Below are positions 16,031 through 43,075 of a DNA stretch of 64,000 bases, one piece after another. Each line of letters starts with the position of its first letter. Positions within the stretch are counted from its first letter, which is position 1. The notes beneath the pieces are model-generated. The model was given only the letters and a program-made list of their open reading frames with translations, made no database searches and was not told the DNA's origin. Source of the stretch: Coriobacteriia bacterium. GTDB taxonomy: Bacteria; Actinomycetota; Coriobacteriia; WRKU01. Location of the stretch: contig WRKU01000003.1 of the NCBI GenBank assembly GCA_009777935.1, positions 16,554 to 80,553 on the forward strand. Reading direction: 5' to 3'. The position numbers and the translations under genes are program-made.

Positions 16031-16129
16031 CTAAGTTGGGATAAACGGATCGATTAAAAACGGTGATGCTGCGAACTATTATGTTGTTGGACCAAATCTG
16101 AATTTGCAAAGTTTAGAGCAGAATAGATA

Positions 16130-16693: not shown

Positions 16694-17514
16694 CCAAGAC
16701 ACCAAACAGCAGAAGGAATCTTGACATAGCGATTGAAAGAGCTTTTGGAACAGGCGATAATTTCTTGCGAACAAGAACCCTTATTGCCAATACAATCGTC
16801 GGCCAGATGCTTCCATCAGGTGTTGTGAAAGGTGGCAGTTCTTTGAAGTTTCGCTGGGGCAATGAAAATGCACGTTTCACGAATGACCTAGACACAGTCC
16901 GAGGTACTGCTCTTACAGAATTTGAAGAACAGATGGCGGAGCTACTGGAGAAAGGGTGGCATGATTTCACCGGCAGACTTGTGGCTAGAGCGCCCGCAAC
17001 ACCAGAAGGTGTTCCCACTCAATACGTGATGCAGCCATTTGAGGTAAAGCTTTCCTACAAAGGAAAGGCGTGGCTAACAGTAATTCTTGAAATCGGACAC
17101 GATGAGATAGGCGATGCCTATGAGCCCGAGTATACAATCTCTGAAAGCATCGTCCAAATATTTTCGAAAATCGGACTGCCTAGCCCGGCTCCCATGCCTT
17201 GCATGGCACTTCATCATCAAATCTCACAGAAGCTTCATGGACTCAGCGAAGAAAACAGCTCGCGTGCCCATGATCTCATAGACCTGCAACTGATTGTCAA
17301 AAATGAAAACATCGATTATGCGGCTACGCGACAGGCTTGCGTGAGGCTCTTTGCATATCGAAATCTTCAGGCTTGGCCGCCAATCATCAAGAAAAAAGAA
17401 AACTGGGGTGAGTTATACGATGCCCAAAAGAACAATCTTTCTGTGCTGGACAGTGTCGATGAGTCTGTTGTCTGGACAAATAAGCTGATCAAGAGAATAG
17501 ACGCTGTGGCATAA
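16690..17514 (+). CDS. AbiEii/AbiGii-family nucleotidyltransferase toxin-like protein
   Basis: 274 aa. VKGGSSLKFRWGNENARFTNDLD fits the GG(S/T)xL...R.S.D(L/I)D nucleotidyltransferase core of AbiEii. It is translationally coupled to the upstream AbiEi-like gene. Confidence 0.65.
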   Translation: MTKTPNSRRNLDIAIERAFGTGDNFLRTRTLIANTIVGQMLPSGVVKGGSSLKFRWGNENARFTNDLDTVRGTALTEFEEQMAELLEKGWHDFTGRLVARAPATPEGVPTQYVMQPFEVKLSYKGKAWLTVILEIGHDEIGDAYEPEYTISESIVQIFSKIGLPSPAPMPCMALHHQISQKLHGLSEENSSRAHDLIDLQLIVKNENIDYAATRQACVRLFAYRNLQAWPPIIKKKENWGELYDAQKNNLSVLDSVDESVVWTNKLIKRIDAVA

Positions 17515-17617
17515 AGTGACGCAGGAGAATTCCACAGAAACATCGTGTAATCAAACCCTGATGAAATTGCTACATATTTACAGAATCTTTTCTCCCCCTA
17601 AATATAAGAATTGTTCA

Positions 17618-18106
17618 ATGAAGCGAAGAGCACTCATTGTCTTTGTAACGCTTGCGGTAGCTGTGATGACCACAGGGTGCAACAAGCACCCCCTAGAATC
17701 ACGTATCGTAAGATATGCTGAGAGAAACCATACGGGTGAATACCTAGAGATAAACCTAGCGGATTTTACCGATTTTGAATGGGATAGAGCTGTTGTCTAT
17801 GCACATCCAGTAACAAAAGCAGAAATAGAAGAAGCTCTCGGCATAGAGTGCGATATCCTCTTTGATCTGCAGTCCGGGATTATATTTGCCCATAACGGTA
17901 AAGTTATGTATGACGAAGTGTTTAAGCAAAAGTATCGAGGAATTGATCCAGTAGTTGCTTCATTTCTGATGCATCATAACCAAGACGTGAATAAAACTCC
18001 ACGTTTTAGGGTGCTGACTCCGCAAGACGCTATATTCGAACTCCGCAAGAACGAATTTGGCCCATCTGAACACTACAATTATCACAGACTATATCCGAAG
18101 GATTAA
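17618..18106 (+). CDS. putative lipoprotein (candidate immunity protein)
   Basis: I chose ATG 17618 inside track ORF 17516-18106. MKRRALIVFVTLAVAVMTTGC has a signal peptide plus a lipobox-like TTGC. Its last ~24 codons lie inside the 89-bp repeat. Confidence 0.55.
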   Translation: MKRRALIVFVTLAVAVMTTGCNKHPLESRIVRYAERNHTGEYLEINLADFTDFEWDRAVVYAHPVTKAEIEEALGIECDILFDLQSGIIFAHNGKVMYDEVFKQKYRGIDPVVASFLMHHNQDVNKTPRFRVLTPQDAIFELRKNEFGPSEHYNYHRLYPKD

Positions 18107-18122
18107 TTCTCAATATGTCAGT
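18034..18122. repeat. 89-bp direct repeat, copy 1
   Basis: ATTCGAACTCCGCAAGAACGAATTTGGCCCATCTGAAC...GGATTAATTCTCAATATGTCAGT has 3 mismatches in 89 (hand alignment) to 22516-22604. Confidence 0.9.
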
Positions 18123-18272
18123 ATCGGCTAAAAAGTATTCTGTATTCCCGTCCATTCTTAGATGCACGAAAGAACAAATCGTTGAGACATCTGAAGTCTC
18201 ATAGCGACAACCCTTCGAGTGTTGAAATAATAGCACCACCTCGCACCTTGGCAACTGAATAGGTGACACACT

Positions 18273-18560
18273 AACCCGTATACCTACAACGCCGAGCGCA
18301 CTGACCGCACCACCGGCATGCAGTATCTGCGTGCGCGCTACTACGCACCCGATGCAGGCCGCTTTATCACCGAAGACACCTATCGTGGGGAATCGGGAGA
18401 TCCATTGACGCATAACCAGTATGTCTACACCGCCAACAATCCGCTGCTTTATAGCGACCCAAGCGGGCATATGTACAAAAAGCTATGCACGAGAAAGCCC
18501 AATCTGGAGACCATTCTTGGCTTCAGGATCTCAGCAAAATATATTGGGATGCATACATGA
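18273..18560 (+). pseudogene. orphan Rhs core-end fragment with a different, very short C-terminal tail
   Basis: 18273-18470 aligns base for base with 12086-12283 of the main rhs gene. The first 50 nt are identical and there are about 6 mismatches in the first ~113 nt. It encodes NPYTYNAERTDRTTGMQYLRARYYAPDAGRFITEDTYRGESGDPLTHNQYVYTANNPLLYSDPSGH, then only 29 codons to a stop. The frame is closed by TGA 18264-18266 just upstream. Confidence 0.8.
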
Positions 18561-18627
18561 AAAGGTATTTTCTCGAATAGAATAGAGTGCTGTATTGACG
18601 TAAGCGAACATTGCACGATGAAAGGAT

Positions 18628-19335
18628 ATGAGGCGGATGAACAGAATAATGGAAGGCATCAAGCGCAAGAAATGGGCAGTAGCAGCATACGTTGCAGGAA
18701 CGTTTATAGTGTCGTTCACGCGGCTTTCCTATGCACTCATTAATCCCGATAGCAACATTCTTGCAGCAGCTACTGATGCATCTTTTTTTGCGGTAGGGTT
18801 GTTTGTTCTTTTTGTTTTTGGCACACTGCTTTTTCCTGTTGGTCTGTATCTTTGGATGCGTCCGATAACGCTCGGAAAGTTTTTTAAGGAGCTTGCTCTG
18901 GGACTCATGCTTGCTCTTGGTGCGGTGTTTTTGTTTGGCATAGTTTTGGGAGCTCTCGCGATATTTGTATTTTGGGATACAGAAGTGGCGGGGATGCATG
19001 TTATTGAAATAATTGCTACGCTAGGTGCCATAGTATCTGCAGCGTATATTGTCTGCATAGTAGCACGTATGGCTGCACTGGGCTCAGTTGCTGCTCGTAT
19101 TTCATGGCGTACATTTCTTGCTGTATTGGCAATGCTTGTGGGCGGAGATATTTTGCAGGCAATACTTGATTTTCTGCCGAAAAATGTTTTGTTTGTAATT
19201 ATAAATGCGACGCTAACGACAACTTTTGCAACATTCACATTTGTCGTTGCGGTTATGTTATGTCGCAAGTATGACGGTTCAAGAAATGGACAAATGAATG
19301 CCCCCGAGTCGATAGTGGAAGCAAAAATAACCTAA
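18628..19335 (+). CDS. polytopic membrane protein (about 6 TM), candidate immunity protein; paralogue of 24543-25208
   Basis: 235 aa and very hydrophobic. Shares collinear motifs with the 24543-25208 product: LYLWMRPI(T/A)L..F.K, SAY(I/V)(V/I)C, L(D/E)(F/Y)LP(K/N)NV. Lies immediately downstream of the orphan Rhs tip. Confidence 0.65.
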   Translation: MRRMNRIMEGIKRKKWAVAAYVAGTFIVSFTRLSYALINPDSNILAAATDASFFAVGLFVLFVFGTLLFPVGLYLWMRPITLGKFFKELALGLMLALGAVFLFGIVLGALAIFVFWDTEVAGMHVIEIIATLGAIVSAAYIVCIVARMAALGSVAARISWRTFLAVLAMLVGGDILQAILDFLPKNVLFVIINATLTTTFATFTFVVAVMLCRKYDGSRNGQMNAPESIVEAKIT

Positions 19336-19414
19336 TCTCAATAGACTCAAATCAAGATAGACTACAAAATGCTATGAGTAGTTTATATTACGGAGCCAAA
19401 AGAGGGAAAAATAT

Positions 19415-19609
19415 ATGAAACTTGAAGATGGGGCCTGCCAGAAGCTTTGTGTGTGAAGCCATTGAACAGCAAGTGAGGTGGACGATGAGAAGAAGTTTTT
19501 TACTCGCGCTGTATACTTTTGGGGCTGGGGATGTTATAGCGGGAGCGCAAGATATATGGTGGGTATATTCGTAGTTGCCTTCATAGTTTCTATGTTTTCT
19601 GCGGGATGA
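19415..19609 (+). pseudogene. degenerate third copy of the zinc-ribbon/TM immunity gene
   Basis: ATG 19415 opens MKLEDGACQKLCV*. Downstream fragments (..EQQVRWTMRRSFLLALYTFGAG.., ..GIFVVAFIVSMFSAG*) match the middle and end of the 13086 and 15659 products but are in different frames. Ends in junction-repeat copy 3. Confidence 0.5.
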
Positions 19610-19630
19610 AAAACGTAGACTCCTGACGTG
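19559..19630. repeat. 72-bp cassette-junction repeat, copy 3 (diverged)
   Basis: GTGGGTATATTCGTAGTTGCCTTCATAGTTTCTATGTTTTCTGCGGGATGAAAAACGTAGACTCCTGACGTG aligns with copies 1 and 2. It shares ACGTGCTAA with copy 2. Confidence 0.75.
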
Positions 19631-19684
19631 CTAAAATAGCAACGTTGCTGTAACCACTTCCATCAGGGGTGTCAGAAGGGTAAA

Positions 19685-20113
19685 ATGATGGACTTTCTTT
19701 CAATTGAGCGAGTGTGGGAAGATATAGAATTTTTTGAGATTGAAGTTGTGGCTCAATCAGAGACTATCTGTGCAAAAACTCAAAGCTACACACAGGATTC
19801 ACGTATAGACGAACTCGCCTCACGCCTGGCGACTTTTCCGCAAAGCCCCGATGACAGATATCTATGGGAAAATGGCACTAAAGGCGATCATTCGACAACA
19901 TGTGTGTCTCTTGAGTTTTCATGTGAAGATGCACTTGGTCATCTTCTTATTGAAGTCTATATGGAACTGGAGGACGGGGGTTCCTACGAAACACACAATT
20001 GTTGCTTTTATATTAGAACAGAGCCTGACACACTCAATCGTTTTGGCAAATCTCTTGCCAGGATAAACGAGAGAGGCATTGGCAAAAAAGCTACCTTGGC
20101 ACCATTGGTGTAG
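19685..20113 (+). CDS. hypothetical cytoplasmic protein (candidate immunity protein)
   Basis: 142-aa acidic ORF in the island with no TM segment and no recognised family. Confidence 0.45.
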   Translation: MMDFLSIERVWEDIEFFEIEVVAQSETICAKTQSYTQDSRIDELASRLATFPQSPDDRYLWENGTKGDHSTTCVSLEFSCEDALGHLLIEVYMELEDGGSYETHNCCFYIRTEPDTLNRFGKSLARINERGIGKKATLAPLV

Positions 20114-20197
20114 AGTAGTAAGTGCTAAAGTTTGGATGACGCTGATTGTTCTGTGAATTTGCATGGTTCGTAGACCAACAACAGGGGTGATTTAACA

Positions 20198-20980
20198 TTG
20201 GTACGTACCATCCACCTAGATAGTTCCTTGCCTGAAAACAGCAACTATTCTTACGAGCAAGTTGCATTTTGGTCGATGCCTGAAAACAGGAACTACGCTT
20301 GTGAGCAAATCTCTCTATGGCTAGACAAGCTGTTGGCTGAAAATTTTGCCGGAAAAGATATCATCGAACAGCAGCTTGCCGGAGCAGCCTATAAAGTGTA
20401 TGGCGAGTATGAATATATCTCTGTGATTTTTGCGCCGAAGACTAATGAACGTTATCCGTATCGTACGCGAGTTCCAGTAACGATGGATGCTAGTCAACCC
20501 AACGGAAACATAGTAACGTTTTTGTTGCATGTTGCAGATGGTTTTATTAATGAAATGCAAATATATAACGCAGATGGAACAGATATAGATGGCAACTTTG
20601 ATGTCTCGAATGTGAGCTATTTATTCGCCGAAGAGATAGCTTTGGGGAATGCTATGACCGTTGAGCAGGAAATCGCAGACGACAAAAGGCGTCTAGGGAA
20701 ATTAATGGAGGAGAAAAAGGTGCCATTAGGTGCAAGACCGTGGGTGGCATACCTTGTACTCGTATTCGGAGTAGCTGCTTTGCTGGCAACAGTTTTTCGT
20801 TATCCTTACTACCCCTATTACTCAATTATGCTCGGAATATTTGCAATCTACTTTTCTCTGTTTGTGTGGCTCAATCCACAGGCAGAACCGAGACAAAAAC
20901 TGATAGCAAAAGTTGCAGCAGTACTTGGTGTCGTGACACTCCTTGCAATCGTTGGATATTGGCTGATAGGTTACGTATGA
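20198..20980 (+). CDS. fusion protein: unknown N-terminal ~170-aa domain + C-terminal copy of the ~90-aa three-TM module
   Basis: TTG start with AGGGGTGA upstream. The N-terminal part contains a 16-aa duplication (PENSNYSYEQVAFWSM / PENRNYACEQISLWLD) arising from a diverged 48-bp tandem repeat at 20231-20326. The C-terminal MEEKKVPLGARPWVAYLVLVFGVAALL...NPQAEPRQKLIAKVAAVLGVVTLLAIVGYWLIGYV is paralogous to the ORFs at 22762-24421. Confidence 0.6.
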   Translation: MVRTIHLDSSLPENSNYSYEQVAFWSMPENRNYACEQISLWLDKLLAENFAGKDIIEQQLAGAAYKVYGEYEYISVIFAPKTNERYPYRTRVPVTMDASQPNGNIVTFLLHVADGFINEMQIYNADGTDIDGNFDVSNVSYLFAEEIALGNAMTVEQEIADDKRRLGKLMEEKKVPLGARPWVAYLVLVFGVAALLATVFRYPYYPYYSIMLGIFAIYFSLFVWLNPQAEPRQKLIAKVAAVLGVVTLLAIVGYWLIGYV

Positions 20981-21210
20981 GAATGTTGAATAATCAAACA
21001 AACACCGCTGTTAAAGATATTAACGATGCATCGTACGAACACGTATAAAAAATGCTCCACTGCCATCAGGAAGTCCAAGTTGGGCGGACATCGGCAAGCT
21101 GTCGTTAGGAGAAATTCAAAGAAGAGCGCAACAAGGACTACCTGGCTATAAGGCAATATTTAAGCTGCTTAACAGCAACGAGTACAACAGGCAGAAAAGA
21201 GGTGTTCTCT

Positions 21211-21438
21211 ATGTATGGTTTAAACGATCTGATAATGTTTTTAAATCGGCTTGAAGAGGAAAAATTTTATTACAGATTGACAAAGATTAGGGATAGCATC
21301 ATGGTCATTGTCTCTGTTCCTGGGCAAAAATGGGAAATTGAGTTCATGCCTGATGGCTCGATTGAAATAGAGAAATACTGCAGTAATGGTGAAATTTTTG
21401 ACGAGCGTGAAATAGATGTTTTATTCAAGGAGTTTTAG
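21211..21438 (+). CDS. small hypothetical protein (candidate immunity protein)
   Basis: 75 aa from ATG 21211, with AAAGAGG 8 nt upstream (track start GTG 21202). The start overlaps the end of an open frame that looks like a toxin-tail remnant. Confidence 0.45.
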   Translation: MYGLNDLIMFLNRLEEEKFYYRLTKIRDSIMVIVSVPGQKWEIEFMPDGSIEIEKYCSNGEIFDEREIDVLFKEF

Positions 21439-21483
21439 GAATAAATCAGCGGTTGAAAACGACATAATATTTATTATTCGTAT

Positions 21484-21927
21484 GTGGGGCTGATAAAGAG
21501 AGGTGAGAAAATCGATTTTTTGAAGGGTTTAATAAATAATCAGATAGTAAGAGTTATCAGCGCTATGCTGGCTGTCCTGCTGCTTGCTTATCTTGTGATG
21601 TTTCTGGACACAAATTCTCTCTATCGTGAAGTGAGAGATGTTTTTCTCTGGAAGGTTGATAGAGCGGAAACAGAAGGAAGGCCGATAAATGCCTATAACA
21701 TGAGCTATCGCTTTCCCGACGAAGAGCTCGGAGGGGTAAATTTGGAATTAGTGCGACTGTTCACTCTGCACAATTTTAAGGACGGATACATATGGGCTCT
21801 ATATAGCAAGGAAGCTTATAACAAAGATGGAAAAATTATCAATGGATCAATAGGTATATTCACAAAATGGAAGATTCATAAAGAAAACGGCGAATGGGAA
21901 ATCGTCGAGATATTTGAAGCACCATAG
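21484..21927 (+). CDS. hypothetical membrane-anchored protein
   Basis: 147 aa. N-terminal TM segment (VISAMLAVLLLAYLVMFL) plus a ~100-aa domain ending ...KENGEWEIVEIFEAP. Organisation resembles the split ORF at 14120-14625. Confidence 0.5.
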   Translation: MGLIKRGEKIDFLKGLINNQIVRVISAMLAVLLLAYLVMFLDTNSLYREVRDVFLWKVDRAETEGRPINAYNMSYRFPDEELGGVNLELVRLFTLHNFKDGYIWALYSKEAYNKDGKIINGSIGIFTKWKIHKENGEWEIVEIFEAP

Positions 21928-22049
21928 CAGTGACCCATTGGTGGAACAAAAATGGAGGCGACAGTTGCTAGAGAGTTAGGAGAGACCACTCTCGAGTTTA
22001 CGGTTTGATACTTGCTCTTCTGAGTTCATTGGATATTATGAGGTGGGAT

Positions 22050-22664
22050 ATGCGAGATAGCAGATGGATTGTAGCCGCGGTATTGTTTGGGGTAATTTTG
22101 ATGATTGTTGGCTGTAGCGATAGAGCAAAACCAGAATATAAAGAGATAACTATCGGCCAAGATGTTGCAGATGTAACACTATCGGGTGGCAAGCAATTAT
22201 TATCAATACGAATATCAGGTTGCTATTATTATCGTGAACCTAATGGTCATGTGGTTTTAGTAACGACACGTGATGGAAAAACAATCACAGCGGCGGTCGT
22301 CTATTCTGTCGACAGAGATTTGGTGTACAGCAAGGGCGTTGGCGTTGTTGATGAGAGCAGCAATCTTGATGACTATATAGGTCAACCGTTTGGTGTTCTT
22401 AAGCGAGAGTTTGGGCCACCACCCCTTGATCTTGGCAGTGGCTTCTATATACCAGCATATTTCACCAATCGGGGAAACCTTGTGACCTTTGGATCGCATG
22501 CTAGCCTATCAGAAGATTCGAACTCCGCAAGAACGAATTTGGCCCATCTGAACGCTACAATTATTACAGGCTATATCCGAAGGATTAATTCTCAATATGT
22601 CAGTTGTACTGCGCTGAAGAACATCGGACAACAATTACTCACCAACTTACCTTATTTCAAATAA
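22050..22664 (+). CDS. putative lipoprotein whose 3' end was replaced by the 89-bp repeat read out of frame
   Basis: ATG 22050 is preceded by GAGGTGGG. MRDSRWIVAAVLFGVILMIVGC has a signal peptide plus a lipobox-like IVGC. From about 22516 the reading frame crosses repeat copy 2 in a different frame from copy 1 and runs on 60 nt past it. Confidence 0.5.
   Translation: MRDSRWIVAAVLFGVILMIVGCSDRAKPEYKEITIGQDVADVTLSGGKQLLSIRISGCYYYREPNGHVVLVTTRDGKTITAAVVYSVDRDLVYSKGVGVVDESSNLDDYIGQPFGVLKREFGPPPLDLGSGFYIPAYFTNRGNLVTFGSHASLSEDSNSARTNLAHLNATIITGYIRRINSQYVSCTALKNIGQQLLTNLPYFK
22516..22604. repeat. 89-bp direct repeat, copy 2
   Basis: See 18034-18122. Confidence 0.9.
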
Positions 22665-22761
22665 AACGCAGTTTAGAATGTCATGCTGATGGGGGTCAAC
22701 TATTTCGTTGCAGGGGTTAGTTTAGAACGTTAGCCACAAATTTCAAAGGAGTCGATATCTT

Positions 22762-23031
22762 ATGCAAGATGAAGAAGTACCTCGCGGCGCAGAACCGTGG
22801 TTTCCTTATTTCACTCTGGTATTGAGCATATTTCCGTTAATGACTCAGACTGTACGGTGGCTATTTTTCATGCCAATATACGCAACGTACTTTTCTGTTT
22901 TAATCCTGCGTGAACCACAAACTAGTGCAACGGCAAAATCAATCGCAAGAATTACGCTTGTATTAGGAATAATGGGCTTGATGATGTTTTGCGTGCAACT
23001 GGTTCTTATTTTAATGAACTACACCGAATAG
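22762..23031 (+). CDS. small three-TM membrane protein, array member 2
   Basis: 89 aa: MQDEEVPRGAEPWFPYFTLVL...LREPQTSATAKSIARITLVLGIMGLMMF. It has the same architecture as the other array members (N-terminal (V/T)P.G..PW motif, 2 TM, basic loop, TM3). AAGGAG lies upstream. Confidence 0.6.
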   Translation: MQDEEVPRGAEPWFPYFTLVLSIFPLMTQTVRWLFFMPIYATYFSVLILREPQTSATAKSIARITLVLGIMGLMMFCVQLVLILMNYTE

Positions 23032-23059
23032 AGTTTTTTACGTATGATAAAGATACGGG

Positions 23060-23395
23060 ATGGGAGAGCTGATGGAAAAACAAAAGACCCCTTTAGGCAC
23101 CAAATGGTGGGTTGCAGGCCTTTCTCTTGTTCGCGGAGTAGCAATCTTTGTGCTGACAGTCTTCTTCTTTGGATTTAGCGCGATTTTTGGTACCGTAGCG
23201 CTCCCGACAGCACTTCCGCGCCCTTATGTGTATTCGCTCCTTTTGCTGATACCGGCAATCGGCCTCTCTGCGCTCGTTTTGCGCCAACCGCACATTGGCA
23301 GAAAACAGAAATATGTCGCGTGGACTGCTGCTGTGCTAGCAGGAGTTTCTCTGGCCGCTTTTCTGAGATTGCTCAGTATGTTTTCACCGGCCTAA
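23060..23395 (+). CDS. small three-TM membrane protein, array member 3
   Basis: 111 aa: ...MEKQKTPLGTKWWVAGLSLVRGVAIFVLTVFFF...LRQPHIGRKQKYVAWTAAVLAGVSLAAFL. Paralogous pattern. Confidence 0.6.
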   Translation: MGELMEKQKTPLGTKWWVAGLSLVRGVAIFVLTVFFFGFSAIFGTVALPTALPRPYVYSLLLLIPAIGLSALVLRQPHIGRKQKYVAWTAAVLAGVSLAAFLRLLSMFSPA

Positions 23396-23461
23396 GGCAG
23401 AGAGCTGTGTCGTGGTGTTTTTCTGTGGTTACTCGACGTAACAGCAAGTTAGGGGAAATTA

Positions 23462-23743
23462 ATGGAAGACAAAAAGGTGCCATTAGGAGCAAGGCCGTGG
23501 GTCGCGCCTACTGCTCTGATTTGTAGCATGATGGCATTCCCGCCAATTATGAATGATGATTATGGCTTGGCCGTTCTCTTTCTCGTAATTGCGGCTCCCT
23601 TGTGTATATTGGTCTTGCGTGAGAAGAAAGCTAGTAAGGGAGCAAGATTTGCTGCGACAATGGCGACAGTGTGGACCGCAATTCTGTCGATGCCCTTTTT
23701 AAGTGAGCTTGCGGCGATACTTGATACAGCTATTGCGGGCTAA
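23462..23743 (+). CDS. small three-TM membrane protein, array member 4
   Basis: 93 aa: MEDKKVPLGARPWVAPTALI...LREKKASKGARFAATMATVWTAILSM. The first ~45 nt are nearly identical to the corresponding part of 20198-20980 (GAAAAAGGTGCCATTAGG.GCAAG.CCGTGGGT). Confidence 0.65.
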   Translation: MEDKKVPLGARPWVAPTALICSMMAFPPIMNDDYGLAVLFLVIAAPLCILVLREKKASKGARFAATMATVWTAILSMPFLSELAAILDTAIAG

Positions 23744-23802
23744 CTTTCGATATGCAGATGCATGTCATGGCTTTAAGAACTCTAAGAGAGAGCGAGAAGT
23801 CC

Positions 23803-24069
23803 ATGCAGGAAAAACAAAATGGTTTTTGGAGAGGAAATCTATCAATAGCGCAACTTTCGTTTCTTTCGTTATTTTGTGCGATAGTGGCTCTACCGTTGGC
23901 TCTTATGCGGTTCCCTCTTTTCCCAGCCGCACTTGGCATAAGCGCTATTTGGGGCAGCTATTTTGTATTTCGGGATCCGCAGGCAGAACCGAAGCAAAAG
24001 CTCATGGCGGCTGCTGCAACAATACTCGGGATTGCCGCACTTCTTGTGATTCTCGTATTTTGGCTGTAA
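23803..24069 (+). CDS. small three-TM membrane protein, array member 5
   Basis: 88 aa from ATG 23803 inside track ORF 23752-24069: MQEKQNGFWRGNLSIAQLSFLSLFCAIVALPLAL...FRDPQAEPKQKLMAAAATILGIAALLVILVFWL. It shares the PQAEP(R/K)QKL motif with 20198-20980. Confidence 0.6.
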   Translation: MQEKQNGFWRGNLSIAQLSFLSLFCAIVALPLALMRFPLFPAALGISAIWGSYFVFRDPQAEPKQKLMAAAATILGIAALLVILVFWL

Positions 24070-34751: not shown

Positions 34752-36596
34752 ATGTGCGGTTTTGTGGGATTTATCGGTGATACCAATGATCGAGATGCTG
34801 TTCTCGACGCTATGTCGACATCGATTGCACACCGCGGACCCGACGATCAAGCGACCTTCACCGACGATTATCTCGCGCTGGCCTTTCGCCGCTTGAGCAT
34901 CATCGACCTCGAAGGTGGCTCACAGCCGATATTCAACGCCGACAACACGAAGCTTATCGTCTTCAATGGTGAAATCTACAACTACCGAGAACTGCGCACC
35001 GAGCTCGAAGCTCTCGGCTATCGTTTTCGGACAAACACCGATGTTGAGACGGTACTGGCAGGTTATGAGGCTTATGGGTGGGACGTGCTCACCAAACTGC
35101 GCGGCATGTGGGCTTTCGTTATCTATGATCTTGAGACCAAGGAGCTCGTTGGTGCACGCGACTACTTCGGCATCAAGCCGCTGTACTACTATCAGCCGCA
35201 AGCGGGGAAGAACCCTCTTCTCTTTGGGAGCGAAATCAAGGCCTTTACAAAGCATCCGGCATTTACGGCACAGGTCAACACGGAGGTCCTCGGCAGCTAT
35301 CTGAACTTTGGTTTCGTGCCGGGTACCGACTCAATGTTTGCCGGCGTCAAGAAGGTGCCGCCGGGCTCATATTTCACGTATGTAGAAGGAAAACTGGCGT
35401 TCACGCGTTACCATACGCACGCGTTTCAGGCCGACGAGGCGAAGATGTTTGACGAGTGGGTCGACCTTATCGACATAACGGTAAAAGACAGCGTAAAGTA
35501 TCACAAAATCAGCGACGTCGAGGTGGGAAGCTTTCTATCCAGCGGCATCGACTCCAGCTACGTGGCTAAGTTAGGTAACGATATCGGTGACCTGCGCACC
35601 TTTAGCGTGGGATATCAGGAAAAGCAGTACAGCGAGCTACCGTATGCTCAGGCGTTTGCTGCGCGATACGATCTACAAAACTATGCAAAAGAAATCACCG
35701 GCGACGAATACTTTGGTATTGCTGAGAAGGTCGCCTATCACCTTGACGAGCCACTTGCGGACCCATCCTGCCTCTCGCTCTACTTCGTATGTAAAAATGC
35801 AGCCGAGCACGTCAAAGTAACCTTATCGGGAGAAGGTGCCGATGAACTGTTCGCCGGCTACAACCCGTATCGTGACGGGTTGCGTATGGATCGGTATCAG
35901 AGGGTGCCGCTCGCACTACGGAAACTCGCCGCAACAGTGGCCCGAATGTTGCCCGATCGCACACTTCATAAAGAGTTTTGGATTCGTGGCGCAAAACCTC
36001 TTGAAGAACGTTATTTCCAAGCAGGAAACTTCATCTTTGAGTCAAAAGAATTGCCCTCTGTCCTAAACGTGACCAATACGGTGACACCGGAGCAGATTGT
36101 CGCGCCTTTTTACGAGGGAACGGAAGGCGCCGATACCGTAAGCCGCATGCAAACTATCGACCTCAATGTGTGGATGCCGGGAGACATACTACTTAAGGCA
36201 GACAAGATGAGCATGGCGAACTCGCTGGAGGCGCGTACGCCATTTCTCGACATCGAGATCCTAAAACTTGCGCAGCAGATTCCCGCTCGCAATAAGGTGT
36301 CGAAGGAGAGTACTAAGATATCGCTTCGTGCTGCGGCGCGTCGGGAAATCGATGATGCCACTGCCGCCAAAAAGAAACTTGGCTTTCCGGTGCCTTTGCG
36401 CGATTGGTTGCGCCGTGATGAATACTACCGGCACGTTAAAGAGGCTTTTAGTGGCGAAGCCGCCGCACAGTACTTTAATGTGGCGTATCTGAACAAACTT
36501 CTCGAAGACCATCGGTCGGGCAAGCAGGATACCTATCGCAGAATCTGGGCGGTGTACATGTTTCTTCTCTGGCACAAACAATTTATCGAAACGTAG
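34752..36596 (+). CDS. asnB: asparagine synthase (glutamine-hydrolysing) family amidotransferase
   Basis: The true start is MCGFVGFIGD (ATG 34752, AGGAGGAAG upstream), giving the N-terminal nucleophile Cys2. Also RGPDD, GEIYNY and SGGIDSS (here LSSGIDSS) PP-loop motifs. The track ORF 34233-36596 has a spurious 5' extension overlapping murG. Confidence 0.9.
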   Translation: MCGFVGFIGDTNDRDAVLDAMSTSIAHRGPDDQATFTDDYLALAFRRLSIIDLEGGSQPIFNADNTKLIVFNGEIYNYRELRTELEALGYRFRTNTDVETVLAGYEAYGWDVLTKLRGMWAFVIYDLETKELVGARDYFGIKPLYYYQPQAGKNPLLFGSEIKAFTKHPAFTAQVNTEVLGSYLNFGFVPGTDSMFAGVKKVPPGSYFTYVEGKLAFTRYHTHAFQADEAKMFDEWVDLIDITVKDSVKYHKISDVEVGSFLSSGIDSSYVAKLGNDIGDLRTFSVGYQEKQYSELPYAQAFAARYDLQNYAKEITGDEYFGIAEKVAYHLDEPLADPSCLSLYFVCKNAAEHVKVTLSGEGADELFAGYNPYRDGLRMDRYQRVPLALRKLAATVARMLPDRTLHKEFWIRGAKPLEERYFQAGNFIFESKELPSVLNVTNTVTPEQIVAPFYEGTEGADTVSRMQTIDLNVWMPGDILLKADKMSMANSLEARTPFLDIEILKLAQQIPARNKVSKESTKISLRAAARREIDDATAAKKKLGFPVPLRDWLRRDEYYRHVKEAFSGEAAAQYFNVAYLNKLLEDHRSGKQDTYRRIWAVYMFLLWHKQFIET

Positions 36597-36627
36597 CGAG
36601 CGTTTTAGGTGGCATCTCGTGGCTCGC

Positions 36628-36656
36628 TTGACAGGGGCAACAGGTGGTGCTATTAA
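36628..36656 (+). promoter_or_regulatory. sigma-70-type promoter of the amt-PII gene
   Basis: TTGACA (36628-36633), an exact 17-nt spacer, TATTAA (36651-36656). Confidence 0.6.
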
Positions 36657-36657
36657 T

Positions 36658-36704
36658 AGGTTAGACGGCAAAGGTGCTGTGGACGAAAGTCTACAGCACT
36701 TTTT
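36658..36704 (+). promoter_or_regulatory. nitrogen-leader module 1a: conserved box + antiterminator/terminator pair
   Basis: The box AGGTTAGACGGCAAAGGTGCTGTGG (36658-36682) is nearly identical to 39500-39523. A 5-bp hairpin ACGGC/GCTGT with hexaloop AAAGGT (36665-36680) overlaps an 11-bp terminator stem (36674-36684 / 36689-36699, GAAA loop) followed by TTTTT (36700-36704). Confidence 0.6.
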
Positions 36705-36776
36705 CTGTTAAGGCTCCTCGGAGAGCGGTTGGCTCAAGGAACCGACTGGCGTCATGCGAATCATCGATTCGCGCAA

Positions 36777-36831
36777 CGTACAAAGGTGTGCGCTTTTCTG
36801 CCGATAGTGGCAGCAAAGCACACACCTTTTT
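36777..36831 (+). promoter_or_regulatory. nitrogen-leader module 1b: second AAAGGT hairpin + long terminator
   Basis: A 5-bp hairpin CGTAC/GTGCG with the same hexaloop AAAGGT (36777-36792) overlaps a ~21-bp imperfect stem (36782-36802 / 36809-36829, 2 mismatches) ending in a T-run. It lies 20 nt upstream of the amt RBS and ATG. Confidence 0.55.
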
Positions 36832-36851
36832 CTATGAAAGGATGGTGGACT

Positions 36852-38588
36852 ATGGATTTTGGTATTTGGTTTTTGCTTGCAGCAGCGCTGGTGTTCTTCA
36901 TGCAATGTGGTTTCATGATGCTAGAGGCGGGCTTCACGCGCGCAAAGAACGCCGGCAACATCATCATGAAGAACATGATGGACTTCTCGATGGGGACGAT
37001 TGCCTTTCTTTTGATTGGCTACACGCTCCTGACTGCTCAGAACTATGCGTTTGGATTTATCGGCGTGCCGAATCTGGGGATATTTACTGATTTTAGCAAC
37101 TTTGACTTCTCAGATTTTGTGTTTAATTTGGTATTCTGTGCCACGGCCGCAACTATCGTGACAGGTGCCATGGCCGAACGCACCAAGTTTAGCGCCTACT
37201 GCATCTACAGCATCGTCATATGTGCGGTCATATACCCGATTCAAGCAGGATGGGTATGGAACGAGAGTGGCTGGCTCGCACAGCTGGGCTACATCGATTT
37301 TGCGGGCTCTTCGGCGATTCATATGGTGGGCGGCATCTCTGCGTTCATTGGCGCGGCGATGCTCGGCCCGCGTATTGGCAAGTACACGATAGATAGAGCC
37401 ACGGGAAAGACTATCGTGAACGCAATTCCCGGCCACTCGCTGACGCTGGGTGCTCTGGGCTGCTTTGTTCTGTGGTTCGGCTGGTACGGGTTTAACGGTG
37501 CCGCTGCGACGAGCGTCTCACAGCTCGGCTCGATATTTGTGACGACAACGTTGGCTCCGGCCGCCGGTGCGGTGACGACTATGTTGTTCACGTGGGTAAA
37601 GAACGGTAAGCCCGACGTATCTATGACGCTTAACGGTGCGTTGGCGGGTCTCGTGGGTATCACCGCCGGTACTTCCAATGTGGATGCACTCGGTGCACTC
37701 ATCATCGGTTCTGTCGCCGGCATTATCGTCGTCGTTGCCGTCGAGTTTATTGACATCAAGCTGCGTGTCGACGACCCCGTCGGCGCGGTAGCAGTACACG
37801 GTGTCAATGGCGTGTGGGGTACGTTGGCCGTCGGTCTCTTTGCGACGCCTATCGTGGCGGGAGGCGATGTCATTTCGGATGCGACCGGTCTGTTTTATGG
37901 AGGCGGCTTTGAACAGCTGGGCATACAGGCGCTGGGCGTGTCGTCGATTGCTCTGTGGACTGCCGTTACGATGACCGTTGTCTTTTTCCTGATTCAGAGA
38001 GCGCACGGTTTACGTGCATCGGCAGAAGAAGAGATCCTGGGCCTCGATGCAACCGAGCATGGTTTGATCAGCAGCTACGCCGACTTCCTGCCGGTCACCA
38101 ATCCCAGCTTGCAGGTGTTGGGTGGCAGAACTGAGGGAGCGGCTGAGGGGACAACGGCGATGCCGGTTACCCCGGAGGTTACCCCGGAAAAGGCCGTTCC
38201 GGTTACCGATATATCGACCGGCCAAAAGCTCACTAAGGTGACGATTATCACCAAGGCGAGCACGTTCGATGATCTGAAGGATGCCCTCGATGCGATTGGT
38301 ATTACCGGCCTTACCGTCACCAACGTGATGGGCTATGGTCAGCAGAGGGGTCGCCAGTCGACTTATCGTGGGGTGCCGCTGCAGTCTAGCCTGTTGCCGA
38401 AGATTAAGGTTGACATTGTAGTCAGCAAGGTGCCGGTCCATCAAGTCGTCGAGACGGTCAAGGATGTACTGTACACCGGTCACATAGGTGACGGTAAGAT
38501 ATTTGTCTCTGACGTTGAAAACGTTATCAAGGTGCGGACCGGCGAGGAAGGTTACGCTGCCTTGCAGGATACGGTTCTGTCCGGTTAG
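36852..38588 (+). CDS. amt: ammonium transporter (Amt) fused to a C-terminal PII (GlnK/GlnB-like) signal-transduction domain
   Basis: Start ATG 36852 with AAGGA 9 nt upstream (track start 36729 lies in the leader). Amt motifs: DFAGSSAIHMVGG, LWFGWYGFNG, VDDPVGAVAVHGVNGVWG, GLDATEHG. After a ~45-aa Pro/Thr/Glu linker comes a complete PII domain (next feature). Confidence 0.9.
   Translation: MDFGIWFLLAAALVFFMQCGFMMLEAGFTRAKNAGNIIMKNMMDFSMGTIAFLLIGYTLLTAQNYAFGFIGVPNLGIFTDFSNFDFSDFVFNLVFCATAATIVTGAMAERTKFSAYCIYSIVICAVIYPIQAGWVWNESGWLAQLGYIDFAGSSAIHMVGGISAFIGAAMLGPRIGKYTIDRATGKTIVNAIPGHSLTLGALGCFVLWFGWYGFNGAAATSVSQLGSIFVTTTLAPAAGAVTTMLFTWVKNGKPDVSMTLNGALAGLVGITAGTSNVDALGALIIGSVAGIIVVVAVEFIDIKLRVDDPVGAVAVHGVNGVWGTLAVGLFATPIVAGGDVISDATGLFYGGGFEQLGIQALGVSSIALWTAVTMTVVFFLIQRAHGLRASAEEEILGLDATEHGLISSYADFLPVTNPSLQVLGGRTEGAAEGTTAMPVTPEVTPEKAVPVTDISTGQKLTKVTIITKASTFDDLKDALDAIGITGLTVTNVMGYGQQRGRQSTYRGVPLQSSLLPKIKVDIVVSKVPVHQVVETVKDVLYTGHIGDGKIFVSDVENVIKVRTGEEGYAALQDTVLSG
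38226..38585 (+). other. PII domain of the Amt-PII fusion
   Basis: KLTKVTIITKASTFDDLKDALDAIGITGLTVTNVMGYGQQRGRQSTYRGVPLQSSLLPKIKVDIVV...TGHIGDGKIFVSDVENVIKVRTGEEG. It has a T-loop with Tyr (STYRG) and the GDGKIFV signature. Confidence 0.85.
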
Positions 38589-38600
38589 GTATCGCGCCAC

Positions 38601-38634
38601 AGCCGAAACCGTCGCATTGTGCGGCGGTTTCGGT
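38601..38634 (+). terminator. hairpin downstream of amt-PII (weak terminator candidate)
   Basis: CCGAAACCG (38603-38611) / CGGTTTCGG (38624-38632) with an inner CGCA/TGCG stem. There is no proper T-run after it. Confidence 0.3.
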
Positions 38635-38680
38635 TAGACTGGCTAGGGGAGAGCAAGAGAGAGCAACGAGAGAGGGCACT

Positions 38681-39469
38681 ATGAAAAAAGTACTCACTAT
38701 TGCCGGTTCTGATACGAGTGGCGGGGCCGGCATACAGGCCGACCTAAAGACCTTTCAGGAGCTGGGCGTCTACGGCATGAGCGCACTGACCGTTATCGTA
38801 ACCATGGATCCCGACGGTTGGAGCCATCAGGTCTTTCCCGTTGAACCCGCTCTTGTTGAGGCACAGCTTGCCACCGTTATTGAAGGTATCGGTGTCGATG
38901 CGATGAAGACCGGTATGCTCCCGACCGGCGAACTTATCGAACTCGTTGCCCGGCAGATTAAAACGCACAGTCTTGAGAAGGTCGTTGTCGACCCTGTGAT
39001 GGTCTGCAAGGGCGCAGGTGAGCCGGTCAATCCGGGAAATACCGTTTGCTACCGGGATGCTCTCGTTCCTCTGGCAACGGTCGTGACGCCGAATCTCTTT
39101 GAGGCCTCCCAGCTCAGCGGCGTGGAAGCGATTGAGACCATCGATGACATGAAAGAGGCCGCCGGCATTATTTGCGAGTCGGGCGTCGAGGTCGTCGTGG
39201 TGAAAGGTGGCAAGGGCATTGATGCGCACAACGCCGTTGACGTCATGTACGATGGCACGACCTTCGAGATTCTTGAGAGCGAGCGAATCGATACGCCGAA
39301 TACACACGGTGCCGGCTGCACGTTTGCGGCGGCTATCGCGGCGAGGCTTGCGCATGGCGACACGATACCCGAGGCGGTGCGCACCGCTAAGACATTCGTT
39401 ACCGAAGCAATCCGTCATTCGTTTAGGCTCAACCAGTATGTTGGCCCCTTAAACCACGGACGAGTTTGA
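38681..39469 (+). CDS. ThiD-family kinase (hydroxymethylpyrimidine/phosphomethylpyrimidine kinase or PdxK-type pyridoxal kinase)
   Basis: 262 aa with LTIAGSDTSGGAGIQADLKTFQELGVYGMSALT, VVDPVMVCKG, TPNLFEA and THGAGCTFAAAIAA motifs of the ribokinase-like ThiD/PdxK family. Confidence 0.85.
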   Translation: MKKVLTIAGSDTSGGAGIQADLKTFQELGVYGMSALTVIVTMDPDGWSHQVFPVEPALVEAQLATVIEGIGVDAMKTGMLPTGELIELVARQIKTHSLEKVVVDPVMVCKGAGEPVNPGNTVCYRDALVPLATVVTPNLFEASQLSGVEAIETIDDMKEAAGIICESGVEVVVVKGGKGIDAHNAVDVMYDGTTFEILESERIDTPNTHGAGCTFAAAIAARLAHGDTIPEAVRTAKTFVTEAIRHSFRLNQYVGPLNHGRV

Positions 39470-39495
39470 CACATCGGGCGCACAGTGGTAAAAAT
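39466..39495 (+). promoter_or_regulatory. sigma-70-type promoter of type III glnA
   Basis: TTGACA (39466-39471), a 17-18-nt spacer, then TAAAAAT (39489-39495). Same layout as the amt promoter. Confidence 0.55.
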
Positions 39496-39499
39496 GATT

Positions 39500-39548
39500 A
39501 GGTAGACAGCAAAGGTGCTGTGGGCGGATACGCTCACGGCGCTTTTTT
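39500..39548 (+). promoter_or_regulatory. nitrogen-leader module 2: conserved box + antiterminator/terminator pair
   Basis: Box AGGTAGACAGCAAAGGTGCTGTGG (39500-39523). A 5-bp hairpin ACAGC/GCTGT with hexaloop AAAGGT (39506-39521) overlaps a 12-bp terminator stem (39515-39526 / 39531-39542, GATA loop, 3 G-U pairs) followed by TTTTTT (39543-39548). The RBS GGGAGGGAG and ATG 39566 follow directly. Confidence 0.6.
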
Positions 39549-39565
39549 GTTGGGAGGGAGTTCTC

Positions 39566-41674
39566 ATGAAAGCTGCTTCGACAAAGACCGTTCCCGAACT
39601 CTTCGGAAGCATGGTGTTTAGCGACACCGTTATGCAAACGCGCCTCCCTGAGGACGTGTATCGCGCACTGAAAAAGACGATGTCGCAGGGTACGCACCTT
39701 GAGCTCGACGTGGCAAATGTGGTTGCCAACGCTATGAAGGACTGGGCTGTTGAGAAAGGCGCCACCCATTTCACGCACTGGTTCCAGCCGATGACCGGCA
39801 TGACCGCCGAGAAGCACGACAGCTTTATCTCGCCGACGGGCGACGGCAAGGTCATCATGGAGTTCTCCGGCAGCGAGCTCGTACGCGGTGAGCCGGACGC
39901 ATCGAGCTTCCCCTCAGGCGGCCTACGCGCTACGTTCGAGGCGCGTGGTTATACCGTCTGGGATATCACCTCGTACGCTTTTATCAAGGATGGCACCCTC
40001 TGCATCCCGACCGCGTTTTGCTCGTATAGTGGCGAGGCGCTCGATAAGAAGACGCCACTGTTGCGTTCGATGGAGGTTATCGATAAGCAGGCGTTGCGCA
40101 TCCTGAGGCTTTTCGGCAACGATACGGCACAGCGCGTCATCACGACCGTCGGGCCGGAGCAAGAATACTTCCTCGTTGACAAGGAGCTCTACGCGCGGCG
40201 CCCCGATATCCGCTACAGTGGCCGCACCTTGTTCGGCGCGCGTGCTCCGAAGGGCCAAGAGCTCGACGACCACTACTTCGGCAGCTTAAAGCCACGCGTT
40301 TCGGCGTTTATGCGTGATCTCGAAGAAGAGTTGTGGAAACTCGGCGTCTATGCCAAGACCAAGCACAACGAGGTTGCTCCGGCACAGCACGAGCTGGCAC
40401 CGATATTTACGACGACAAACATCGCAACCGACCAAAACCAGCTGACGATGGAGATGCTCAAGATTGTGGCAGACCGCCATAACCTTGCCTGTCTGCTGCA
40501 CGAAAAGCCGTTTGCCGGTGTTAACGGCAGTGGCAAGCACAACAACTGGTCGATTTCGACCGATACGGGCATCAACCTGTTAGAACCAGGCGAAACCCCG
40601 TATGAAAACGCTCAGTTCCTCCTATTCCTCGTGGCCATCATCAAGGCGATCGACGAGTATCAGGATTTGCTGCGAGTCTCTGCGGCAAACGCCGGAAACG
40701 ACCATCGGCTTGGCGCGAACGAAGCACCACCGGCTATCGTCTCGATATTCCTCGGCACCGAGCTTACCGACGTGCTGGAGGCACTCGAATCCGGCGCAGA
40801 CTACAGCGATGCGGAAAAGGCCCAGATGGAGGTTGGGGTAACGGTGTTGCCGCACTTCCCGAAGGACACGACCGACCGCAACCGCACCTCGCCGTTTGCC
40901 TTTACCGGCAACAAGTTCGAGTTCCGTATGCTCGGCTCGTCGTTTTCGATCGCCGGCCCCAATATTGTGCTCAACACGATAGTCGCCGAGGTTTTGGGCG
41001 AGTTTGCCGATAGCCTTGAGCAGTCCTCCGATTTCAAGAGCGACTTAGCGGCACTTATTAAAACGACGTTCAGCGAGCATAAGAGAATCGTCTTCAACGG
41101 CGACAACTACTCTGACGGATGGGTTGCCGAGGCGGAAAAGCGCGGGCTGTCGAACCTGCGGACGACACCCGATGCGCTGCCGGCGTTCGTCGAGCCCAAA
41201 AGCATCGAGGTCTTTACTAAGCACGGCATCTTTACCGAGGCCGAACAGCGGTCGCGCTACGAGATTTTGCTGGAAGACTACAGCAAGGCAATCAACATCG
41301 AGGCACTGACGATGGTTGACGTGGTGAAGGGCAAGATAATACCGGCCTGCATCGACTACCAGATCGATATCGTCACACTTCTCCAGCGCAAAAAGCAGGC
41401 GTGCGGCACACACGATATGACGCTTGAGGATCAGCTGCTCAACAGCATCTCGAAGCTGTCCGGTAGCATGGCGAAGAAGTTGGCTGCTCTCGAAAAAACA
41501 CTTCTTGTCGCTAAGGAGAACGATGAGGATGCGCTTGCCGAGGCATGCTACTATCGTGACAAGGTGTTCAGTGCGATGTCAGAGCTGCGGCTTGTCGTCG
41601 ACGAACTCGAGATGCTCGTATCTGACAAGTATTGGCCGCTGCCTTCGTACGCGGAGCTGCTCTATAGCGTGTAG
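39566..41674 (+). CDS. glnA: glutamine synthetase, type III (~700 aa form)
   Basis: 702 aa from ATG 39566 (track start 39515 lies in the leader). The size and sequence (..[23 protein letters not shown].., [52 protein letters not shown]) fit the GSIII family known from Bacteroides and anaerobes. Confidence 0.9.
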
Positions 41675-41776: not shown

Positions 41777-43015
41777 ATGCGCACTCGTTTTGCTCGTATA
41801 GCAGCAGGCGTTCTATTCGGAACGTGTCTTATGCTGGTGGTCGCCCCGCTTGTCGCGGGCGCGTTTCCATTCGTAGGATGGGAGCGTTATTTTCAGGTCC
41901 CCGTGCCCAATACCGTCGAAGCATTTGAGGAGGCGGTCGCTCATCTTGACCCGGATGCGTCGTCTCCCGAGCCGACTTCGTTTGTGGCAACGACGACGCC
42001 CGGTATCCCTTTTATTACGGCGATTCAGCACAATAATGTAACGGTCTCCGATACAACGACTCCCGTGCATGCCGCGCTCAACTCGGCGGTAACCTTGACT
42101 GCAGTTCCTGCGATGTCTGACGGTGGGCCGGTACCTCTCTTCGTGACGTATCAGTGGTGGGAGCGCAGCGAAACGGGAACCTCTGATACGCGAGGGTTCA
42201 CGCGCGTCTCGGGTGCGACCGATCGCACGTTTGTCGTCGATACCACCACGCCCGGTACGATGCTCTATGCGGTGACGGCGTACAATGGTTCTGCGTCTGA
42301 CCCTAACCAAAACCCCAGTGAATTTGCCGATAACGAAACATTCGCTAACGTTGCCTATGTGCAGGTTTTGCAAAATCCCGAGTTTTCGCGTGGATACCGT
42401 ACGAGTTTCTCGGCCCCACCCAACACCGATATTGAGATTGTCGCTGTAGCAGACAATGCGTCGGGCTATCAGTGGTGGGAGAGTTCGGACGTCGGCCTAT
42501 GGACGCCGATAGCCGGTGAAATCACCGATACGATTGTCGTTAACGAGCCGGAGGACACTATCGTCTATCTCGTGGCGGTTGCCGAAAACGAGGTCGGTGC
42601 GCGTGAGGCGAGCGGTATCATAACCGTGAGCGTTGCGCAGGGGGCACCGGTGCCGAGTCCTGCCGGACGTCCCGAGGTTGCCGAAAGGCCGGCCGGTACG
42701 CGCGGCGGAACAACGGGCGGCGGCTCTGAATCTGCCGTGCAACCTGTCGATGATATCGAGCCGGTACCGGCTGAGAGCTCACTTGATGAAACGGCCGATG
42801 CCCGGCCACCTTTGCCGACACCCGACCCTGAGGATGATCAGGGAGGAATCGATCCGCTTTGGTGGTATATTGGCGGCGGCGTATTGTTGGCGCTTGTTGC
42901 GATAGCCGTTACCGTTACCGTCGTCAAGAAGCGTGGCGGCAAGGATGGCGGACCGAACAATCAGGCGAAGTCGTTTGCTGATTTACAAAACGCCTCTCTC
43001 GGTAAGAAAAAGTAG
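41777..43015 (+). CDS. membrane-anchored surface protein with two Ig-like repeats and a Pro-rich stalk
   Basis: N-terminal signal (MRTRFARIAAGVLFGTCLMLVVAPLVAGA). Two related segments start YQWWE(R/S)S... A Pro/Gly/Glu-rich linker is followed by the C-terminal TM segment WWYIGGGVLLALVAIAVTVTVV and KKRGGK. Confidence 0.6.
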   Translation: MRTRFARIAAGVLFGTCLMLVVAPLVAGAFPFVGWERYFQVPVPNTVEAFEEAVAHLDPDASSPEPTSFVATTTPGIPFITAIQHNNVTVSDTTTPVHAALNSAVTLTAVPAMSDGGPVPLFVTYQWWERSETGTSDTRGFTRVSGATDRTFVVDTTTPGTMLYAVTAYNGSASDPNQNPSEFADNETFANVAYVQVLQNPEFSRGYRTSFSAPPNTDIEIVAVADNASGYQWWESSDVGLWTPIAGEITDTIVVNEPEDTIVYLVAVAENEVGAREASGIITVSVAQGAPVPSPAGRPEVAERPAGTRGGTTGGGSESAVQPVDDIEPVPAESSLDETADARPPLPTPDPEDDQGGIDPLWWYIGGGVLLALVAIAVTVTVVKKRGGKDGGPNNQAKSFADLQNASLGKKK

Positions 43016-43055: not shown

Positions 43056-43064
43056 TGGTATACT
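43056..43064 (+). promoter_or_regulatory. extended -10 promoter candidate for gdhA
   Basis: TGGTATACT (TGn + TATACT) about 30 nt upstream of ATG 43094. AAGGAGGGG RBS follows. Confidence 0.4.
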
Positions 43065-43075
43065 CCTTCACATAG

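Follow-up and report, generated by a model that had tools for sequence, protein, structure and literature searches.

A conserved hairpin-terminator leader before type III glutamine synthetase in a Coriobacteriia bacterium: a putative single-hexaloop ANTAR attenuator

Beyond the old work on NitR, little is understood of how Clostridia and related gut anaerobes control nitrogen metabolism. A 64,000-nt stretch of contig WRKU01000003.1 from a Coriobacteriia bacterium (the window, analysed at its full length; its genes and elements discussed here lie on the forward strand) raises the question of what kind of signal stands directly before glnN, the gene for a type III glutamine synthetase (GS), and recurs before amt-PII, which encodes an ammonium transporter fused to a P-II domain. 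An initial annotation of this DNA had proposed an RNA switch between antiterminator and terminator shared by the two genes, with a DNA operator for a nitrogen repressor as the alternative. On comparative sequence evidence, the leader before glnN is a real, conserved RNA attenuator. We consider it likely that this leader and two modules before amt-PII are protein-dependent transcription attenuators of the ANTAR kind, with a putative regulator of the NitR type.

The interval 39466-39565 consists of a consensus promoter, a hexaloop hairpin, an overlapping terminator and a Shine-Dalgarno (SD) region, and runs up to the glnN ATG. The -35 hexamer TTGACA (39466-39471) is followed after a 17/18-nt spacer by the -10 region TAAAAAT (39489-39495); a promoter scan reported TTGACA-18-AAAAAT with 10/12 matches. 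Judged by the usual distance of ~7 nt past the -10 box, transcription probably starts at ~39501-39502. GATT (39496-39499) lies between the -10 region and the box AGGTAGACAGCAAAGGTGCTGTGG (39500-39523), after which come GCGGATACGCTCACGGCGC and TTTTTT, ending at 39548. The SD region GGGAGGGAG occupies 39552-39560, and glnN (702 aa) extends from 39566 to 41674, with Pfam matches to GSIII_N, Gln-synt_C and Gln-synt_C-ter and an identical gene call on the metagenomic source contigs (ENA ERZ27257348, 88 kb; also JGI 3300002469). Promoter, hairpin (39506-39521), SD region, start codon (39566) and type III GS had all been placed here by the initial annotation, and all were recovered in place, the GS by Pfam.

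Two folds of this leader are mutually exclusive. The small antiterminator hairpin at 39506-39521 has a 5-bp stem (ACAGC 39506-39510 / GCUGU 39517-39521), the hexaloop AAAGGU (39511-39516) and a closing C-G pair, at -6.6 to -7.3 kcal/mol. The 5′ arm of the terminator is made of that hexaloop and the 3′ stem of the same hairpin. A GAUA-loop terminator of 12 bp followed by six U residues had been described here; the core (39515-39542, GTGCTGTGGGCG-GATA-CGCTCACGGCGC) and the T6 run (39543-39548) are indeed present, but the stem is longer than claimed. The loop bases AAAG pair with the U-run, lengthening it to 16 bp (39511-39526 / 39531-39546, loop GAUA), so that the full intrinsic terminator covers 39511-39548. 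Its fold has an energy of -28 kcal/mol, with a z-score of about -6 (-5.9) against shuffles. The leader thus has what defines an intrinsic terminator: a G+C-rich hairpin directly before a U-run (39543-39548), with compensatory stem changes among relatives. A simple consensus scan for terminators passed over the two obvious ones, that before glnN included, and flagged the small hairpin at 36777-36792 instead, probably because the terminator stems run into the U-run.

A second box, at 36659-36682, precedes amt-PII (36852-38588; assigned by Pfam, and 578 aa in the source-contig gene call). Box matches numbered two in the window and none in window shuffles. The initial annotation was right about a near-identical copy, but not about 22 of 24 positions: the two boxes differ by one A/G substitution and one extra T and are 23/24 identical. 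It had also reported that gdhA and asnB lack the box, and we likewise found none before either gene in the window. Read directly, the amt-PII promoter (36629-36658) comprises TTGACA (36629-36634), a 17-nt spacer and TATTAAT (36652-36658); the promoter scan did not flag it, its -10 hexamer being TATTAA without the final T.

Behind this promoter are two tandem attenuators, each with its own terminator. The first (36665-36704) has the hairpin ACGGC/AAAGGU/GCUGU at 36665-36680 and a terminator at 36670-36703 with loop GAAA, a U-run at 36700-36704 and an energy of -29 kcal/mol; it scores 50 bits with the covariance model described below, and the G-U pair in its stem fits an RNA helix. The second (36777-36831), absent from the initial annotation, has the hairpin CGUAC/AAAGGU/GUGCG at 36777-36792 and a long terminator at 36782-36829, with a U-run at 36827-36831 and -30 kcal/mol. 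Its stem type, GYAC/GUGY, is that of the amt-PII leaders of relatives and not that of glnN leaders. A longer amt open reading frame (ORF) of 619 aa from a TTG at 36729 was rejected as a spurious 5′ extension over the structured leader; the source contig starts the gene at 36852.

All three loops of the window (39511-39516, 36670-36675 and 36782-36787) read AAAGGU, and relatives mostly have AAAGGC. With U at loop position 6, an additional A-U pair forms in the minimum-energy fold and the loop shrinks to the tetraloop AAGG, which could change the affinity for a reader protein.

We scanned GTDB representative genomes with the GlnN protein and obtained 80 loci at 64-78% identity, mostly from metagenome-assembled genomes (MAGs) of Clostridia with some Treponema; the closest GlnN in the species collection is 78% identical, so that the source organism has no near relative represented there. 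A simple pattern (regular expression) placed the module before glnN or asnA-glnN(-amt-PII) in 41 of the 80 loci, asnA being the gene for asparagine synthetase A. A covariance model built from 39 leaders raised the count to ~60 and also found tandem copies in Treponema. The box, whose absence from orthologous leaders was to have counted against a shared element, is therefore conserved.

The common layout in relatives is TTGACA-17-TATAAT, ~11-12 nt, CAGC-AAAGGC-GCUG, and a terminator with a 5′ arm formed by the loop and the 3′ stem of the hairpin; this overlap of hairpin and terminator was seen in all aligned leaders. Of 65 promoter-proximal leaders, 54 have TTGACA-17-TATAAT immediately before the hairpin, and in 54 the -10 hexamer ends 11-18 nt ahead of the first loop base. 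In the window the -10 box ends 11-12 nt before CAGC. With the -10 box so close to the stem, there is no room for a second hairpin upstream. No second hexaloop of the P1/P2 kind adjoins the hairpin in the promoter-proximal leaders, apart from one doubtful 3-bp candidate in the locus L028; downstream of the hairpin is the terminator apex, whose tips are variable and not hexaloops. Tandem copies of the module, where present, each have a terminator of their own. Modules without a promoter also occur: all 18 amt-PII sites between glnN and amt in relatives are of this internal kind. Variants with other stems precede amt-PII, an operon resembling glutamate synthase (GOGAT) genes, and an operon of type I GS (glnA) with nitR.

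The arrangement of the genes varies among these relatives. Several Clostridia have an asnA-glnN-amt-PII operon under one leader (L003 4910-9819, L008 4876-9884), with an extra internal hexaloop and terminator before amt, and in them a GOGAT-like operon with a GAAC-type leader is divergently transcribed. In Treponema MAGs, tandem pairs of hexaloop/terminator modules precede glnN and amt-PII (L062 5816-5971, L074 5840-5965, L078 1857-2004, L069 5817-5970 and 2454-2560). That spirochaetes should have leaders like those of Clostridia suggests that the genes and their control element were transferred horizontally as a unit.

Is the conserved structure really one of RNA? Across the 39 aligned terminators, 92.5% of alignment cells were paired and 10 of 16 pairs changed on both sides (78 cells), a covariation score that none of 500 shuffles reached and no register shift approached. 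Changes in the loop of the small hairpin are matched in the 3′ arm of the terminator, AACGGC for instance pairing with GCCGUU. The stems of the small hairpin differ between gene classes. Leaders of glnN and asnA usually have CAGC/GCUG, with the variants CGGC/GCCG, CGGC/GCUG, UAGC/GCUA, AAGC/GCUU, CGAC/GUCG and CAAC/GUUG; leaders of the GOGAT-like operon and of the glnA(GS-I)-ANTAR operon usually have GAAC/GUUC, and those of amt-PII GCAC/GUGY. G-U variants occur among these stems.

As a control for bias, sites were chosen without regard to the stem. A first scan of this kind, which collected every A-tract terminator (545 sites), was too noisy and was restricted to nitrogen genes, giving 110 sites at which a loop-like hexamer went with a complementary terminator and a nitrogen gene downstream. 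Stem positions 1-4 were paired in 78-86% of the 110 sites and in 46-72% of shuffles, with positions 6-7 at background. In 63 distinct hairpins, five of six pairs changed on both sides (107 cells; 0/500 shuffles). These 63 were picked for a closing C-G pair, so that its invariance among them is by construction; the pair was present in 83 of the 110 sites, where no such filter applied. Loop positions A2 and G4 were invariant in the 63 hairpins. The loop consensus was A-A-N-G-R-Y, with A1 and G4, and the commonest loops in the 110 sites were AAAGGC, AAGGGC, AAUGGC, AAAGGU and AACGGC. A covarying stem with a fixed loop, a fixed closing pair and G-U pairs is, by its pattern of change, what would be expected of a protein-recognised RNA hairpin and not of a DNA palindrome. 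The RNA-level switch proposed in the initial annotation is thus borne out by covariation in both terminator and hairpin and by the promoter-less internal copies.

If ANTAR control applies, the RNA would start a few bases upstream of the hairpin. Left to itself, the nascent RNA would form the terminator, the stronger fold at about -28 kcal/mol, and the polymerase would halt at the U-run, short of the gene. When nitrogen is limiting, a NitR-like protein with a pseudo-receiver and an ANTAR domain would bind the weak 5′ hairpin (about -7 kcal/mol), recognising the hexaloop AAAGGY and the closing C-G pair. The bound hairpin would sequester the 5′ arm of the terminator, the terminator would not form, and glnN or amt-PII would be transcribed. 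Four points of this scheme we infer: where transcription starts, that NitR binds, which way the nitrogen signal acts, and that the source organism has a nitR gene. The hairpin signature is identical to that of validated ANTAR sites.

A candidate for the reader, a factor that the initial annotation had not named, came from the gene neighbourhoods. All ORFs of the 80 loci were clustered, and the recurrent families near glnN were Pfam-scanned in part. Neighbours included amt-PII (27/80 loci), type I GS (23/80), glutamate-synthase-like proteins (13-22/80) and, within 6 kb in 18/80, a receiver-ANTAR protein of ~193 aa (ANTAR domain PF03861) that matches Rv1626, EutV, AmiR and NasR in the PDB. ANTAR was the only regulator-type family among the Pfam-scanned recurrent families; several families had no Pfam match or were unscanned. 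The ANTAR gene usually stands directly behind that for type I GS, in the classical clostridial arrangement glnA-nitR. Because this gene stands beside glnN in 18 relatives, we regard a NitR-type ANTAR protein as the best explanation of the leaders. The glnA-nitR operon itself has a leader with a promoter, GAAC-AAAGGC-GUUC and a terminator, and autoregulation is therefore predicted.

Fourteen of these receiver domains were aligned (L071:3533-4114, L029:3742-4308 and L068:3642-4211, all on the reverse strand, plus 11 others). At what we take, from familiar receiver-domain motifs, to be the phospho-acceptor position, 11 have Asn (IINTPL), one Ala (IINAPL) and two Asp. The NitR-like receivers thus look like pseudo-receivers, and AmiR likewise has a pseudo-receiver. 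Since the phospho-acceptor Asp is replaced, the protein would be controlled by a partner and not by phosphorylation; that partner is possibly the co-transcribed type I GS or a P-II domain.

Several observations weigh against ANTAR control. By tblastn, no ANTAR gene was found in the window, nor was a type I GS, the only GS match there being glnN itself. No ANTAR or other regulator gene was found in the 6.4 kb of source contig upstream of the window, and 62 of the 80 relative loci showed no ANTAR gene within 6 kb of glnN. There is a single hexaloop hairpin per terminator, compared with two in the classical targets, and for eutP both hairpins are required in vivo. The stem of the small hairpin is almost invariant among close glnN leaders, which, taken alone, would also fit sequence-specific DNA recognition.

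The missing ANTAR genes and the single hairpin could also belong to a genuine hairpin/terminator switch whose hairpin is stabilised by some other factor, such as a P-II-linked or GS-linked protein or a small RNA. We think this unlikely, since the loop and closing pair are as in validated ANTAR sites, the glnA-nitR operon has the same leader, and ANTAR is the sole regulator-type family among the Pfam-scanned recurrent neighbours.

The operator hypothesis would make the box a DNA site, spanning +1 to +20, to which a nitrogen repressor or activator binds, with the RNA folds incidental or a plain terminator. It draws on the nearly fixed distance from the box to the -10, on the inverted repeat CAGC-N6-GCTG inside the box and on the near-invariant stem just mentioned. 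However, between glnN and amt, and as the second of two tandem copies, hexaloop/terminator modules stand without a promoter, and because the 18 glnN-amt sites have no promoter, a promoter-bound operator is strongly disfavoured. The half-sites change in a compensatory fashion between gene classes, and the G-U pairs would be meaningless in DNA. The most conserved part is the non-palindromic centre AAAGGY, always on the sense strand. In every case the element comes with a terminator and shares bases with its 5′ arm. The TnrA/GlnR operators of Bacillus (TGTNA-N7-TNACA) give nitrogen-responsive control of glnA and amt genes in Firmicutes. Unlike the leaders studied here, these are DNA sites for MerR-type proteins, and no such box occurs at the glnN or amt promoters: with up to one mismatch, the window has 15 matches against 17.8 expected, none of them at either promoter. 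We therefore judge the operator explanation, which the initial annotation had kept as its second choice, to be improbable.

A factor-independent switch, either a tiny riboswitch or a kinetic or constitutive attenuator that lowers expression, would suit the tiny leader, the lack of a regulator gene in the window and the damping that a terminator would exert by itself, but its chances are very slim, since a 4-5 bp hairpin with a six-base loop offers no plausible ligand pocket, a hairpin of about -7 kcal/mol cannot unaided outcompete a terminator of about -28 kcal/mol, no Rfam family matches (none in the window at the gathering score, and only chance-level matches at E up to 10 in 36550-39620), and the keeping of specific loop bases across three gene classes points to a common trans-acting reader.

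ANTAR control, then, remains the reading that we prefer, and it extends to a wider proposal. The leaders may form a natural, widespread class of single-hexaloop ANTAR targets at the extreme 5′ end of the RNA, with a NitR regulon and a pseudo-receiver controlled by a partner; we give this combination about an even chance of holding as a whole. The regulon would comprise glnN, asnA, amt-PII, the GOGAT-like genes and glnA-nitR itself, in Clostridia and some Treponema, and the gene-class-specific stems could tune affinity.

One predicted regulon, tied together by a compact cis-element of ~45 nt, would thus cover type III GS, asparagine synthetase A, ammonium transport, the GOGAT-like genes and the operon of the regulator itself; existing dual-hairpin models and Rfam miss this element. 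The leaders would be natural single-hexaloop substrates for the revised model of ANTAR binding and, if the proposal is true, the first in vivo test case for whether one hexaloop suffices for ANTAR antitermination. Recognising the element also corrects annotation, since gene callers run ORFs over such leaders, as in the amt ORF from 36729.

Other features of the window lie outside this system. Between glnN and gdhA lies a 412-aa ORF (41777-43015) to which no Pfam family matches. With a hydrophobic segment at the N-terminus, a stretch rich in Pro, Gly and Asp and a membrane anchor at the C-terminus, its product resembles a surface protein. A one-mismatch TnrA/GlnR match, TGGTATACTCCTTCACA (43056-43072), some 20 nt ahead of the gdhA ATG, is at chance frequency and probably meaningless. 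A giant RHS/YD-repeat protein of ~2950 aa is encoded at 4193-13066, and the stretch 12000-24000 is low in G+C (0.43-0.45, against 0.55-0.60 elsewhere), with many short ORFs without Pfam matches and an AbiEi/AbiEii toxin-antitoxin pair at 16166-17514. The RHS gene and the low-G+C stretch together look like a polymorphic-toxin locus with spare cassettes. A loose search for the box returned a near-perfect palindrome in this island, ATAGCAACGTTGCTGT (19636-19651); it has no terminator and a different centre, and we rejected it as unrelated to the nitrogen leaders.

How do these leaders compare with known antitermination systems? The antiterminators of BglG, LicT and SacY (named in PMC3369936) likewise rely on one protein-stabilised hairpin that overlaps a terminator just past the promoter. 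They differ in having an unrelated CAT/PRD domain, an unrelated 29-nt ribonucleic antiterminator (RAT) sequence and sugar-utilisation targets.

The closest precedent for the regulator is NitR of Clostridium saccharobutylicum, described in reviews and a transcriptome study as an ANTAR antiterminator that induces GS and GOGAT genes (Stutz et al. 2007, as cited in PMC6316151 and PMC4676874). The likeness lies in a receiver-ANTAR protein co-transcribed with type I GS and in the proposed antitermination under nitrogen limitation; in our data, moreover, the glnA-nitR pair adjoins glnN in 18 relatives and has the same leader. Unlike that system, the targets here are type III GS, asnA and the amt-PII fusion, and nitR is absent from the window.

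In the classical ANTAR target, as defined by Ramesh et al. 2012 (PMC3369931), a pair of small hairpins have six-base loops with A1 and G4 and sequence-sensitive closing pairs, and the second of them overlaps the terminator. Set beside the targets of EutV (eut, Enterococcus faecalis), NasR (nasF, Klebsiella oxytoca) and AmiR (amiE, Pseudomonas aeruginosa) from the same study, our leaders share the short stem, the hexaloop with A1 and G4, the closing C-G pair, the loops AAAGGC, AAUGGC and AACGGC found in validated sites, the overlap of the 3′ half with the 5′ arm of the terminator, and nitrogen-related target genes. The validated hairpins (PMC3369931, Figs S1 and S2) include nasF GGAU-AAAGGC-GUCC, eutA UUAAGC-AAAGGC-GCUUAA, eutG GUGUAC-AAUGGC-GUAUAC and Listeria GGUAC-AAAGGC-GUAC, and the signature C-AAHGGC-G is common to our leaders and to nasF P2, eutA P2, eutG P1 and Listeria eutG P1. 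Of the features that mark an ANTAR target, the leaders thus have the A1/G4 hexaloop, the closing pair and the terminator overlap, and lack the two tandem hairpins. Unlike dual-hexaloop targets, they have one hairpin per terminator, near the 5′ end of the transcript and at a near-fixed distance from the promoter, and the loop of the glnN-leader hairpin also pairs with the U-run in the terminator.

Table S2 of PMC3369931 lists ANTAR RNA matches before Firmicutes genes for GS, ammonium transporters and glutamate-synthase-like proteins, one of them C. thermocellum amt. Structures of EutV with RNA led Walshe et al. 2022 (PMC8934654) to propose the single hexaloop, contacted by an ANTAR dimer, as the minimal ANTAR site; the RNA in that study still had two hexaloops, and its conclusion was that termination is prevented only if each of them is contacted. 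Because these structures argue for a single-hexaloop minimal unit, the architecture of our leaders is plausible, and they would be natural single-hexaloop targets. ANTAR control of clostridial nitrogen assimilation has already been predicted; what sets these leaders apart is that each terminator has a single hexaloop, placed at the RNA's 5′ end.

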